From the NCBI GenBank assembly GCA_048213135.1, contig PS015352.1, forward strand, positions 1 through 52,008: a DNA stretch of 52,008 nt, read 5' to 3'. The notes below the pieces were generated by a model, which saw nothing but the letters and a program-made list of their open reading frames with translations, searched no databases and was not told the DNA's origin. The position numbers and the translations under genes are program-made. The stretch comes from Reclinomonas americana ATCC 50394. Its lineage: Eukaryota. This document shows positions 35,600 through 52,008 of the stretch, in pieces. Within the stretch, counting starts at the first letter, position 1, and each line of letters opens with the position of its first letter.

Positions 35600-36515
35600 A
35601 TGACAGCAAAGGTGGGAATGTATGCACTTTGCGTGGTTGGTGTCTGCGCGTGCATTCGTGTGCTTGTGCATCGTGTGCAGTTGTTGTTTGTGTTGTTATG
35701 CTTGTCTTTGATTGCTGCTGCGTGCGTCTCACTGCGAGTGGCACAGATCATTCAGAGTCCCGCTTCGGTGCGGTCCGTCGCCGTCACTCCCGATTGCCAG
35801 CACATTGTTGGTGGGTGCATGGACAGCACTGTTCGAATGTGGTCACTGGCGAGTGGCAAAGAGGTGCGACGGCTGGAGGGACACACTGCGTGGTTGCAGT
35901 CTGTCGCCGTCACCCCTGATGGCCTTCACATCGTGAGTGGANNNNNNNNNNNNNNNNNNNNATAATGCGGGTATGGTTGCTGGCGAGTGGGGAGGAGGTA
36001 CTGCGGTTGGAGGGGCACATTGGCTTGGCGCTCTCTACACTCCCGATGGTCGACACATTGTGAGTGGCGGTGGGGACGAGACAGTGCGAATATTGTCACT
36101 GGTAAGTGGGATGGAAGTGCGACGACTAGAAGGACACACTGGAAGGGTGTGCGCCGTCGCTGTTACTCCCGACGGTCAGCATATTGTGAGTGGGAGCGAG
36201 GACAGCACCGTGCGGATGTGGTCTTTGGCGAGTGGCGAGGAAGTACGACAGTTGGAGCGACACACTGGATGGGTGTCGTCTGTGGCCGTCTCTCCCGATG
36301 GTCTCCACATTGTGAGTGCGGGTGGCATTGACGGGACGATACGAGTGTGGTCCACGCCGCGCGGCCTTGCTCACCTCGAACTCGACGCCGCGCGCTCGGC
36401 CATGCAAGCCGTGCAGGAGATGCAGGAGGATGAAGTAGATTCACGATGCCTTCCCGAGCTGGTTCTGCGCTGTTTCATCGTCGAAGATGCCGAGGTCGTC
36501 CTTTTTCGGTGCTGA
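35600..36515 (+). pseudogene. WD40 array copy 1 (exons 35600-35611, 35747-36515); gap plus frame-breaking deletion near 36030
   Basis: MTAK|IIQSPASVRSVAVTPD...; after the gap the blade EGHIGL...TPDG lacks the VxSVAV strand and changes frame. The tail CLPELVLRCFIVEDAEVVLFRC* is intact. Confidence 0.6.
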
Positions 36516-36965
36516 GGTGGTGAGTCGGAGGGAGGGAAGGTGGCTGCTGGTGACTGGGAGTTGTTTTTTCGTGTCTTGTGCGGGGGTGCGGGTGATCATG
36601 CGGGATGCAGGTGGGGGTACAGAGGAAGACAGAGGAAGAGAGTGAGATTGTAGTTGATGGTGAAGAATCGTTCCCCCGTGTTTGTTGCCCTGTCATGTAC
36701 ACGTGAATGTGATTGTGCGGGCGTGAAGCATGTCTCCCTCTGTTTACGTGTCTCTTTCTCACCTCCATTTGTGTGCAAGTGCGATGAATCACTTGGGAGT
36801 CTCTTGCGTTTTTTTGTCTTGTTGTGAAGTCTGTTGTGCGTGCATCTTTCGTCGCCCATGTACGTGCCTCAGGAGAGCGAGTCACCGACGATTGTCTCCT
36901 CGTTTGCACACTTCCTTGGCGCCACTACTCTGCTTNNNNNNNNNNNNNNNNNNNNATGTCTTGTC

Positions 36966-37014
<49 letters not shown>

Positions 37015-38652
37015 CCTTACAGAGTCTCTATCTTTCTCCACCATCTCTCTCCTTTGTGCGCTCATCTGCCTCCCCAGTCATCCACCCCTCCTTGCCGCAC
37101 ACGCTCAAGGCCGAGCATGCTTCTCTACTCATGTTGCACCGACTGCCATCCTGCCAGTTCATCATGGTGAGCTTCTAGATACCGAAGTGTGTGAGATGGC
37201 CCGACTGCATTCTGACTCTTCTCTCTCTCTATCTCTATCACAGAACCGGCCCTCGGCTGTCCTCTTGCCCAAACGCGTGTTGGTATCAGGTGCTGATTGG
37301 TGTGTTCGCCACGTGTGACAGAGCAGATTTCTCTCCTCTTCCTCCATGCCTTTGCTCACAGCACACCGGCATGCAGAGACCATGGAAAGCATGTCGTGAC
37401 GATGACAGACGTGCTGTGCATTGCCCATTGCCGGCTGTCACCTCGCTCAGTCGGCTCCACACCTGAATCCCAGCAATGCACGATGCAAGTGTTGGCCTTG
37501 TTCGTCTTGATTTCTCTTTCCTCCTTCCACTCACCTCACTCATGCAGGCCGCACATGCTATGGAGAGCGTGGCTGGGTGGATGTACATATGCGCGCGTGC
37601 CGTGCTGTGCGATGGTGGCCTGGTTGGTGGATCGTATTAAATCCCGACTTGCAAGTCTGAGTGGAGTGTGCGCCGTTGCCGCCGTCTCTGTCGAGTGACG
37701 ATGGTGTTGGCCATGGAAGACTGCAGACGCGTGCTCGGCAATCTACTCATGGGTTGTCGTGTTTCCCGATGGGTGACCTGGTCGGTGGATCGTTCTCGAT
37801 CCCGGTTGGCAAGTCGGAGCGGATCGATGGTATGCGCTTCTTGGTTGCTGCTGTCGCCGCCAAGTAATGATGGTGATGGCCATGGGAGACTGCAGACTCG
37901 TGTCAGGCTAGCAACACGTGGTGCGTGCGTGTTCTGTATCTGCGTTGAGGAGCATTGGTGAGACTTGGAGATTGACTGACTCAGTTCTGTGTGACAGGCG
38001 TGCTGGCAAGTGACTGGCATGCGAAGACACGTGGTTCCGTGTCACACAGTGCATGCATGAGACGATTCACCGACCGAATGTGAGTGTGATTGAAGTCACG
38101 AGGCATTGATTGTGATCTGGGTGAAGGGGAGGCGAGTCTCACGTCACAGCTGCCTGTTCCGTCGCTGTGCTGCTGTACTGGTCGTTCCTCTCTTGTTCCT
38201 TGTGCCATCATCGTGCCCTCATCAACCTCGCTGTGGGCCGATCCAAGGAGGCTTGAGGTTTCGAAGACTCGGCGCTCATTGGATTCTCGGGTGCAGGGCC
38301 ACAGCTGCATATCCAAGCAACCCGACATGCCAGTCCTTGGTGACAGAGTATGCAGGTCAGTTGAAAGAGAGTGTCGCTGGACAGCAGCACGGTGCAGTGG
38401 AGCGTCACCTTGAGTCACCACCACCACCTTGCTTGTCCATTCTGTCGATTTCGCATCGACGAGTCCCATGTCGGTCTTCGAGAGCCCACACGCATCAACG
38501 AAGCCACATCGTTCACACACCACCGCATGATATGTGGCTTGCTGGCTGCAGCCTGGCGAGGGATGCGGGACGTCTCAGAGCAAGACGGGAGAAAAAGGCG
38601 GGAAACAGTGACAATCCCGAGCGAGCAACTCACACACACACACACACGGAGA

Positions 38653-49916: not shown

Positions 49917-51958
49917 GTCGGTGAGTTGGAGAGAGGGAAGGTGGCTGCTGGAGAATGTGAGTTGTTTTTCTTGTTGTGCGAGGGAGAATGGGTGATCACG
50001 CGAGATGCAGGTGGGGAAGAGAGGATAACAGAGGAGAGAGATCGAGAGATCGCTGTTGATGGTGGTGAATTCTTCTCCCGTGTTTGTTGCCCTTTGATGT
50101 GAATGGGAGTGTGCGGTCGTGAAGCATGTCTCCCTCTGTTGGCGTGTCTCTTTCTCACCTCCATTTGTGTGCGAGCAAGACGAATCACCTGGAAATCTGG
50201 TGTCAATTTGTCCCGTTTGATGTCTGTTGTGCGTTCACGTCGTTCGTGTATGTGTGTGCCTCAGGAGAGCGAGTCACCGTTGTCTATTCCCTCGCATCTT
50301 CTTTTGCGCACCACTTTGGCATCACTGCTCTGCTTCCCATTGTGCCTGTGCGTGGCGGACATTTTCATCCCTTCTCTGCAGGATGCATGTCATTCCGGTC
50401 ATCTCTATCGATATCTGTCCCTTGTAGAGTCTCTCTCTCTTTCTCCGCCATCTCGCTGCCTTTGTGCGCTTATCCGCTTCCCCAGTCATCCACCCCTCCT
50501 TGCCGCACAAGCTCGAGGCCGAACATGCTGGTCTGCTCACCGTTTTCCTATTGCCATCGATTGCCAGTCCATCATGGTGAGCTTCCCGATACCGAAGTGT
50601 GTGAGATGGCCTGACTGCATACTGACTCCGCTCTCCCCCTATTGAAGGATGGATGTGTGTAAAGAAGCATCTCTTGGCTTGCTTCTTGACAAACGCGTGT
50701 TGGTATCAGGTGCTGATCGGTGTGTTTGTCAGTGAGACAGAGCAGATATCTCTTTCCTCCCTCCATTCCTTTGCTCACTGCGCACCGACATGCAGATGCG
50801 TTGGAGGCACGTTCTCCTCCTCGTTGTTCTGCGATGATTTGCAGGCGTGCTGTGCATCGCCCATTCCCGGCTGTCACCTCACTCACTCGGCTCCACACTC
50901 GCATCCCATCATGCACGAAGCAGGTGTGTGGACTTGTTCGTCTTGATCTCTCTTTCCTCTTTCGCTCCCACTCACCTCATTCATGCAGGTCATGCAGCCA
51001 TGGAGGCCGTGGCTGGGAGGATGTACACATGCGCGCGTGCCGTGATGTGCGATGGATGGCCTGGTCGGAGGATCGTATTCAATCCCGGCTGGCGAGTCGG
51101 AGCAGATCTATGATGTGGGCGCCTTGGCTGTTGCTGTTTCTGCCGAGTGACAAAGATGATGGCCATGGGAGACTGCAGACACACGCTCGGCCAGCAACAC
51201 ATGCATGGTGCGTGCGTGTTCTGCATCTGCGTTGAGGAAGAAGTTGGTGAGTTTCGGAGATCGACTGACTCAGTTCGGTGTGTGCCATGAACACAGGCGT
51301 GCTGGCAAGTGACTGGCATGCGAAGACACGTGGTTCCGTGCCACACAGTGCATGCATGAGACAATGCACCGACCGACTGTGAGTGTGATTGAAGTCACGA
51401 GGCATTGATTGTGACTTCAGTGAGAGGGAGGCGAGTCTCACGACACAGCTGCCTCTTCCATCGCTGAGCGGCTGTGCTGGTCGCTCCTCTCATATCCCTT
51501 GTGGCTCTTTTTCTTCATTGTCTCACCTCAACCTCGCTGTGGACCGATCCGAGGAGGTGAGGTGTCGCTGACTCGGTGCTCCATGGATTCTCGGGTGTGC
51601 CGTGGCATCAGCACACCAGGGCCACAGCTGCATGTCTAAGCAGACCGACATGCCAGTCCTCGTTGACAGAGAATGCAGGGCAGTAGAAAGAGAGTGTCGC
51701 TGGACAGCAGCGCGATGCAGTGGAGCGCCAACCTCGTGTCACCACCTTGCGCAAGCATGCTTGTCCATTCTGCCGATTTCTCATCGACGAGTCACATGTC
51801 GGTCTTCGAAAGCCCACAAGCATCATCGGAGTCACATTGCTCTCATACTGCTGTATGTTATGTGGCGTACTGGCTGTAGCCTGGCGAGGGATGAACGACT
51901 TCTCGGAGCAAGGCGGGAGAAGAAAGGCGGGAGACGGTGACAATCGCGAGCGAGCAAA

Positions 51959-51999
<41 letters not shown>

Positions 52000-52001
52000 G
52001 A

Positions 52002-52008
52002 ATGGCAA
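52002..52008 (+). CDS. Start of WD40 array copy 6 (truncated by window edge)
   Basis: cacacggagaATGGCAA has the same context as the other first exons. Confidence 0.75.

Follow-up and report, generated by a model that had tools for sequence, protein, structure and literature searches.

Among described systems, two come closest to the genes reported here: the WD40 repeats of fungal HET-E/HNWD proteins and the broader class of highly repetitive WD40 proteins. In HET-E/HNWD of Podospora anserina, four positively selected codons (7, 9, 25, and 27) flank the conserved codons 8 and 26 and occupy two top-face loops of the propeller, the D-A loop and the B-C turn, according to the excerpted text of Paoletti 2007 (PMC1805685). 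Fungal HNWD repeats are recognized by amino-acid identity of ~85% or more and by concerted evolution (Dyrka 2014, PMC4986451). An excerpt of Hu 2017 (PMC5587647) defines a Highly-Repetitive WD40 class by internal repeat identity above 0.7 and describes its members in bacteria, fungi, and protists as generally conserved except at predicted hotspot sites.

Here we describe a tandem array of small WD40 genes in Reclinomonas americana ATCC 50394. The window, by which we mean the whole stretch of DNA analyzed, comprises 52,008 nucleotides (GenBank assembly GCA_048213135.1, contig PS015352.1, positions 1 to 52,008 of the forward strand). Five ~3.3-kb units (U1 to U5) and the start of a sixth, arranged head to tail, occupy it from position 35600 through to the end. 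The propeller blades of these genes share a conserved scaffold and vary at six positions that appear to evolve under positive selection, and the encoded proteins probably form a diversified family of specificity subunits sharing one tail interface.

Repeat periodicity and recurring units bear out the tandem array of WD40 genes proposed in an initial annotation of this sequence. Tandem Repeats Finder detects period-126 arrays at 36038-36318, 38853-39645, 42198-43119, 45591-46397, and 48928-49734, and successive last-blade/tail segments are spaced by 3327, 3476, 3269, and 3329 bp. We count ~35 blades across U1 to U5, close to the 34 or so blades of 42 amino acids first reported: about six in U1 (some partial, across an N gap), eight in U3, and seven in each of U2, U4, and U5. 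The last three units are intact, with open frames of 339-340 codons, while U1 and U3 are frameshifted. The units and an adjoining relic are as follows.

35600..36515, + strand: U1, broken; exon 1 35600-35611, intron 35612-35746, exon 2 35747-36515
38653..39842, + strand: U2, intact gene; exon 1 38653-38664, intron 38665-38822, exon 2 38823-39842
42015..43324, + strand: U3, pseudogene-like, eight blades; exon 2 from 42172
45419..46587, + strand: U4, intact gene, seven blades; exon 2 45571-46587
48758..49916, + strand: U5, intact gene, seven blades and tail; exon 2 48897-49916
52000..52008, + strand: start of the sixth unit (ATGGCAA..., ATG at 52000), where the array leaves the window
34327..34590, + strand: relic U0, a single last blade and a diverged tail ~53-56% identical to the U2 tail

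In U1, an N gap at 35942-35961 is followed by a decayed, frameshifted blade; because the sequence upstream of this unit has no homology to the spacers of the other units, U1 marks the left edge of the array. The seven blades of U2 run from 38835 on in steps of 126 nt and lead into a tail at 39675-39839. U3 carries two 1-nt frameshifts, one near 42682 and one within its seventh blade (blade start 42939). In U4, blade 4 has 41 amino acids and blade 3 ends in GG, not GH. An in-frame stop precedes the relic. Three intact genes, two frameshifted genes, and one relic fit the birth and death that had been suggested for the family.

All five full units share one gene structure. A conserved ATGRCARCMRAG followed by GTG supplies a four-codon first exon (starting at 35600, 38653, 42015, 45419, and 48758 and encoding MATK, MTAK, MTTK, or MATE) and a GT donor, and a cacag acceptor opens the long exon-2 frame in every unit. 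The GT-AG introns of U1 to U5 measure 135, 158, 145, 140, and 127 nt and are not kept in frame, and the second exon lacks an early ATG, so a spliced model is needed for an ATG start; from these conserved signals we infer a four-codon exon 1 and its splicing. Exon 2 encodes the 42-amino-acid WD40 blades and then a tail of ~55 amino acids, with a stop whose position all five units share, an organization that matches the short first exon, propeller, and constant tail (then put at ~50 amino acids) of the initial annotation. A donor-like GGTGAG lies 3-4 nt past the TGA stop in all five (39843-39855 and equivalents) and may mark an intron in the 3′ untranslated region (UTR).

The blades are predicted to form a closed seven-bladed propeller. 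Pfam finds seven WD40 (PF00400) stretches in each of U2, U4, and U5 (E = 9.6e-81, 3.7e-77, and 5.3e-77; 263, 252, and 251.5 bits against a cut-off of 27), and the propeller model from AlphaFold 2 (AF2) has a mean predicted local distance difference test score (pLDDT) of 89.9, or 94.3 with a second alignment. Over model residues 1-289, the span of both structural comparisons, which hardly covers the fold of the tail, VIA-align superposes the model on WRAP-T (7big), PkwA (5yzv), and 2ymu (Z 49, root-mean-square deviation 0.8-0.9 over 279-284 residues) and Foldseek gives 5yzv as its top match (43% identity). These matches, respectively designer propellers, the WD40 domain of a bacterial kinase, and 2ymu, are the nearest solved structures, at 42-43% identity. 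A search of proteins of similar length in a set of 5.8 billion with the whole of U2 returned 3435 matches, all generic WD40 (at most 95% query cover, best identity 63%), and no near-identical protein, and NCBIfam gave only sub-threshold propeller matches on the array proteins. By sequence and predicted fold, the array propellers are closest to highly repetitive WD40 proteins of the bacterial PkwA type.

Variation within the blades is focused on six positions. We aligned by codon the 26 complete first and internal blades of U1 to U5, numbering from the residue after GH and leaving out the last blades, which have one extra residue in the B-C loop. Shannon entropy across the 26 is 3.19, 3.11, 2.70, 2.54, 2.38, and 1.99 bits at positions 5, 3, 21, 23, 2, and 1, respectively, and at most 1.48 bits at each of the remaining 36 positions, so that the six carry ~43% of total blade entropy (summed from the entropy table). 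Amino-acid identity is 18% at these sites against 79% in the scaffold, and the six-residue signatures are distinct in all 26 blades. The per-site entropy analysis, which had been put forward as a check, thus agrees with the variation first noted after GH and on either side of the structural Asp, and the strings quoted at that time (ADVVF, TGWVC, YDK, and GDS among them) are found in the blades. Mean identity among the first six blades of a gene is 0.75 in U2, 0.70 in U5, 0.69 in U3, and 0.66 in U4 (our own computation, without the last blade). At positions 2, 3, 5, 21, and 23 the commonest residues are G, R, S, W, C, and Y (10 W and 8 Y among 130), a composition typical of binding sites.

These positions map to the predicted top face. 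Strands in the AF2 model span blade positions 4-9, 15-20, 24-29, and 35-40, which puts positions 1-3 in the D-A loop, 5 where strand A begins, and both 21 and 23 in the B-C turn; both this strand map and the loop placement in the excerpt of Paoletti 2007 (PMC1805685) agree with the top-face location originally claimed. Judging from equal spacing and from the conserved V and D that these sites flank, we infer that positions 3, 5, 21, and 23 correspond, with an offset of four, to codons 7, 9, 25, and 27 given in that excerpt for Podospora.

Synonymous divergence indicates that the blades are old, and the variable positions evolve faster than synonymous sites. Across all 325 blade pairs the proportion of synonymous differences (pS) is 0.49 and mean nucleotide identity is 74%, and pS among internal blades is 0.50 within genes and 0.47 between genes. 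Since the blades are this old at the DNA level (pS ~0.48), the conserved scaffold (dN/dS, or omega, of 0.16-0.20) reflects purifying selection and not recent homogenization. First blades are orthologous by position among the five genes, as are last blades; for these two sets, omega at positions 3, 5, 21, and 23 is 2.40 and 2.52, respectively, against 0.19 and 0.13 in the scaffold. We also fitted maximum likelihood (ML) models on a tree of scaffold codons (IQ-TREE, GY+F3X4; kappa 4.41, omega 0.20). When the 36 scaffold codons supply both tree and synonymous rate, omega is 4.16 at positions 3, 5, 21, and 23 (twice the log-likelihood difference, 2dlnL, of 80 against omega = 1) and 3.12 at all six variable sites. 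When each site class has its own synonymous rate, the estimates are 3.04 for the four positions (2dlnL 7.95, P about 0.005) and 2.49 for the six (2dlnL 8.59), with the scaffold at 0.20. Per-site omega exceeds 1 at positions 2, 3, 5, 21, and 23 and not clearly at position 1 (1.2), and the next most variable sites (13, 14, 20, and 40) give 0.35. The direction of this elevated omega at loop sites is robust and its significance moderate.

Parts of the units differ in their divergence and in their closest relatives. Mean identity between units is 74-78% in the blades and rises to 86-89% in the tail. The first ~1 kb of spacer has 66-81%, lowered by a small inversion in the U3 spacer, and the ~750-800 bp that lead up to the next ATG have 87-93% (mean 88.7% over 10 pairs among the five copies before U2 to U6, with 87-91% between units for the ~800-bp segment). 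This last segment is represented by the following copy.

41215..42014, + strand: ~800-bp spacer copy upstream of U3, with equivalents before each ATG

Its indels are not multiples of three, which identifies it as non-coding, and it is nonetheless more conserved than the synonymous sites of the genes, where pS rises from 0.23 in the tail through 0.34 in the first blade and 0.37-0.38 in the last blade to 0.48 in internal blades. Either promoter/UTR constraint or homogenization by gene conversion that spares the blades could account for this conservation. Along the unit the closest pair changes, from U1-U2 in the tail to U3-U5 just downstream, U1-U4 in mid-spacer, and U3-U4 in blades 1 and 6/5, which argues for segment exchange between units. 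Scaffold nucleotide identity of internal blades is 0.817 for blades of the same index and 0.797 for different ones (15 vs. 60 comparisons, one-sided P = 0.016), a weak positional signal. The spacer sequence has no occurrence elsewhere in the window. Further exons within it, encoding an MLLE or N-terminal domain, were ruled out, as tblastn finds no MLLE remnant and the indels are frame-breaking. Other features of the spacers include GTGAGA...ACAG intron-like signals in the segment before the ATG, a ~170-bp segment of the U3 spacer that is inverted relative to other units (44171-44337), an internal direct duplication of ~170 bp (40927-41093 vs. 41105-41272), and (CA)n and (CT)n microsatellites directly upstream of gene starts (e.g., 35448-35585 and 51962-51996).

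The tail is a conserved segment of restricted distribution. It follows the pattern W-S-T-P-R-G-L-A ... L-P-E-L-V-L-R-C-F-I-V-E-D-A-E-V-V-L-F-R-C and differs little among units (proportion of nonsynonymous differences, pN, 0.056; pS 0.23; omega ~0.2). Pfam at E ≤ 0.01 returned only WD40-type matches on the last 80 residues, with no SOCS-box or F-box, and NCBIfam gave no match on the tail. The tail is homologous to the linker that precedes the MLLE domains of two genes elsewhere in the window (22064-25773, described below), with 11 invariant columns in 8 sequences and tblastn E of 3e-5 to 3e-4. A profile of the 8 window tails found 6 matches at E ≤ 0.001 among 1.84 billion proteins. The best (E = 6.4e-18) is an open reading frame (ORF) from the R. 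americana set of EukProt that is 64-67% identical to the last blade and tail of the array; its transcript-style name suggests expression of family members in such organisms. Two further matches have WD40-type blades before the tail (P0123, a 147-amino-acid fragment, and P0124, a diverged propeller), and the remaining three have no Pfam match. Searched alone, residues 280-339 gave 36 candidates among proteins of similar length in the set of 5.8 billion, none at E ≤ 0.01; the tail profile gave 40 pattern matches in JGI metagenome contigs, none confirmed, and ESM Atlas no usable match. With an alignment of 13 tail-bearing sequences, AF2 draws helices at 288-312 and 319-338 (block-mean pLDDT 70-88), and the tail is accordingly predicted to be a lineage-restricted module of two helices, a fold that is provisional because the AF2 outcome depends on the alignment. 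A complex prediction for two tail copies scored 0.01 against a mark of 0.32, which, as its own alignment was not used and the fold is uncertain, is evidence neither way. We considered PAM2 and BC-box motifs and dropped both by eye, the spacing of key residues not fitting the consensus motifs.

Relatives of the array genes with additional domains lie in the same window.

1..2071, + strand: kinase-WD40 paralogue, cut by the window start; C-terminal part of the kinase 1-459, seven blades 1187-2071
22064..25773, - strand: two tandem propeller-tail-MLLE genes, about 22064-23768 and 24087-25773

The kinase (Pfam Pkinase, E = 4.6e-8) is joined to blades of the same type as those of the array, 59-65% identical to U2 and without the tail. 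The architecture of this gene resembles that of bacterial PkwA. Each of the two minus-strand genes combines a diverged propeller, a tail-like linker (W.P..EL...LPxFVLRCFIEEEAE), and one or more MLLE domains (PF00658, E = 9.2e-22 and 5.2e-6; two stretches in 24087-25013 and one in 22064-22762). In tblastn, the ORFs of these genes match the array over the tail-like segment only and not over the MLLE part, and the 308-amino-acid ORF at 24087-25013 (- strand) gave 4278 candidates among proteins of similar length in the set of 5.8 billion, none at E ≤ 0.001. Within the array genes themselves, the 25 best Pfam matches per protein are all WD40-type and include no NTPase or effector domain, and neither a protein kinase domain nor MLLE PF00658 is present by Pfam. 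This agrees with the absence of NACHT and effector domains first reported, and no NACHT or NB-ARC domain occurs in 59 other window ORFs that were scanned (58 picked by eye from 110 listed, plus one more). The description of these genes as stand-alone accordingly holds for the array members but not for the window, which also has the kinase-WD40 paralogue and the two tail-sharing MLLE genes. PADLOC yielded a single non-specific match, to the WD-like part of a 1972-position model, and across the whole window Rfam (at the gathering threshold) and ARAGORN gave 0 matches each. A telomere-like heptamer repeat, sought as a mark of Eimeria-like origin, had 0 matches.

The rest of the window contains other features, of which two are listed here.

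6307-6795, - strand: UDP-glucose/GDP-mannose dehydrogenase-like ORF (Pfam E = 6e-17), in a low-GC stretch
8208-9665, + strand: intron-split pieces of a UDP-galactopyranose mutase (UGM) gene; ORF 9126-9665 matches solved UGM chains at E = 5.6e-15

The UGM pieces have no Pfam match at 1e-4. GC content is 39-47% at 4001-8000 and 54-62% in most of the window, and N runs flank and interrupt the low-GC stretch, which could be a misjoin, a foreign insert, or a compositional island. Further recognizable ORFs include Copine and Myb, and trinucleotide repeats at 12700-16600 and 26100-26900 give long homopolymeric amino-acid runs (Q, A, S, and L) in several frames.

We read the array as a lineage-restricted family of ~343-amino-acid, probably cytosolic proteins, each predicted to consist of a seven-bladed propeller and a constant two-helix tail. 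Six top-face loop positions per blade (42 per protein) have diversified faster than synonymous sites while purifying selection held scaffold and tail, and the units exchange segments and decay. Each paralogue may bind a different ligand via its top face, and the common tail may present the same second interface in all of them, in which case the paralogues would be interchangeable specificity subunits, each recruiting its own target to one shared partner or process. Two nearby genes connect diverged propellers through this tail to MLLE domains, and the gene at the window start fuses blades of the array type to a kinase. These combinations suggest a modular family that pairs a propeller sensor with an output, of which the array members might be an output-less or adaptor form. 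We assign a probability of roughly 0.6 to a diversified family of specificity subunits sharing one tail interface. The targets may be foreign (immunity) or endogenous (regulation), and an immune role is possible by analogy. The initial annotation survives here in its focus on the loops, its appeal to selection, and its birth and death; its HET-E-like label holds for the pattern of selection, and its stand-alone status for the array genes.

Several observations weigh against specificity subunits diversified by selection. When all 325 pairs are used, the variable sites show a dN/dS of just 1.09, with pN of 0.57 and pS of 0.55 near saturation, and because of that saturation the all-pairs measure cannot separate drift from selection. 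The 27 reciprocal-best blade pairs give omega of 1.90 at the variable sites and 0.19 in the scaffold, but scaffold identity was the basis for picking them, so that their pS is biased low. The conservative likelihood test draws on 4-6 codons, recombination among blades violates its single-tree model, and five tip-shuffled trees still gave omega of 1.9-3.7, with 2dlnL of just 1.6-7.4. On the dN/dS check envisaged at the outset, omega is above 1 at the variable sites in three analyses, with scaffold and tail under purifying selection, but not clearly so in the saturated all-pairs comparison. The window is a eukaryotic draft sequence with 2205 N in 12 runs, and the frameshifts of U1 and U3 could be assembly errors. 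The gene model with its four-codon exon draws only on conserved signals, and with 3 tail sequences in the alignment AF2 drew the last 20 residues as a hairpin at pLDDT below 50.

Among the alternatives, the one that survives best, though we consider it unlikely, is that the array is a repertoire for non-self or danger recognition, along the lines raised in the initial annotation, made of germline-encoded variable receptors for prey, bacteria, or viruses whose tail couples to a shared partner such as the nearby MLLE proteins or the kinase-WD protein. The four positions selected in the Podospora HET-D/E/HNWD allorecognition repeats, as given in the excerpt of Paoletti 2007 (PMC1805685), are here the most variable and fastest evolving. 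A tandem array with decay and segment exchange would also be expected of such a repertoire, and a tail motif common to the array and the MLLE genes recalls, by analogy, fungal sensor/effector pairs. The residues that prevail at positions 2, 3, 5, 21, and 23, a mix typical of binding sites, point the same way. However, neither the array genes nor the 59 ORFs scanned contain an NTPase switch, a death-fold, or a known immune effector domain, PADLOC found only its WD-like match, and the paralogues are old (dS ~0.3-0.5 in tail and end blades) and not fast in turnover. A bolder version, in which minimal WD40 sensors of an NTPase-free germline variable-receptor system have top faces diversified by selection and by inter-unit exchange and plug their tails into MLLE and kinase outputs within the cluster, convergently with fungal NLR sensors and in a deep-branching, jakobid-like protist, is a speculative analogy that we think improbable.

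It is equally doubtful that the genes are ordinary scaffold-protein paralogues whose exposed loops drift under relaxed constraint, their immune-like look being general to highly repetitive WD40 proteins. The all-pairs ratio near 1, the value of 1.2 at position 1, and the hotspot-only variability described in the excerpt of Hu 2017 (PMC5587647) are what drift would leave, but tests that are model-based or less affected by saturation put omega at 2.4-4.2 for the four sites defined in the literature, and other exposed variable positions (13, 14, 20, and 40) stay at 0.35. That the array is a decaying or silent repeat or an assembly artifact without functional products is very improbable: two of five full units are frameshifted, a relic adjoins them, and the draft has N gaps, but the frame stays open over 339-340 codons in three copies, all five retain the signals for start, donor, and acceptor, the R. 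americana set of EukProt holds a 64-67% identical ORF with a transcript-style name, and omega of 0.2 in the scaffold and ~0.2 in the tail over dS of 0.3-0.5 requires selection on protein.

A fixed scaffold with hypervariable contact sites characterizes the recognition modules of many immune receptors, and for WD40 proteins this regime is documented in fungal NLRs and noted generally for highly repetitive members. New here are site-specific WD40 diversification in free-standing, tandemly arrayed genes and a conserved tail, not described before, through which other propellers are also connected with MLLE domains; a full-text literature search on jakobid WD40 families found nothing relevant. The lineage appears to be a little-studied one among protists, the closest named relative of the tail being from a jakobid. 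If the paralogues do bind different targets, the family would provide stable propeller binders as a natural library, a way to test for variable-receptor logic outside NLR architectures, and a route to the function of the new tail module. If they do not differ in targets, it would still be a clear example of top-face divergence under selection in a young propeller family.

Substrate receptors such as the WD40-SOCS box protein WSB1, F-box-WD40 proteins, and DCAF proteins pair a variable binding domain with a constant docking box. The array proteins resemble them in having a propeller and a short constant helical C-terminal module and in family expansion, a functional analogy only, and differ in that the tail matches no SOCS-box, F-box, or other Pfam family (E ≤ 0.01).

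With the HET-D/HET-E/HNWD repeats of fungi the array shares 42-amino-acid repeats, a conserved scaffold, variability and selection on two codon pairs (one in the D-A loop and one in the B-C turn), each pair bracketing a conserved residue, and multigene families that include pseudogenes. The HNWD-type trait of positive selection on four top-face codons is present (omega 3.0-4.2 by ML, 2.4-2.5 by counting), within the limits set by saturation and few codons. In contrast to the fungal genes, those of the array have no HET or NACHT domain, and their repeats are 66-75% identical rather than about 85-100%, with high synonymous divergence that speaks against recent concerted evolution. In the one haplotype analyzed, blade number is 7 in the three intact genes and 8 in one pseudogene, and the array consists of separate small tandem genes with an extra C-terminal tail. 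The label HET-E-like thus applies to the pattern of selection but not to the domain architecture (no NACHT or HET), the repeat identity (66-75%), or homogenization (pS 0.48).

The closest match in sequence and predicted structure is to PkwA of Thermomonospora curvata (5yzv), 2ymu, and the Highly-Repetitive class, which have variable hotspot sites in common with the array; internal identity in the array (0.66-0.75, our own computation without the last blade) lies around the cut-off of 0.7 given in the excerpt of Hu 2017 (PMC5587647). A kinase-WD40 fusion in the same window (1-2071) is a further likeness to PkwA. Unlike PkwA-type proteins, the array genes are eukaryotic and intron-bearing, lack the kinase, carry a lineage-specific helical tail, and form tandem paralogues with evidence of positive selection between them.

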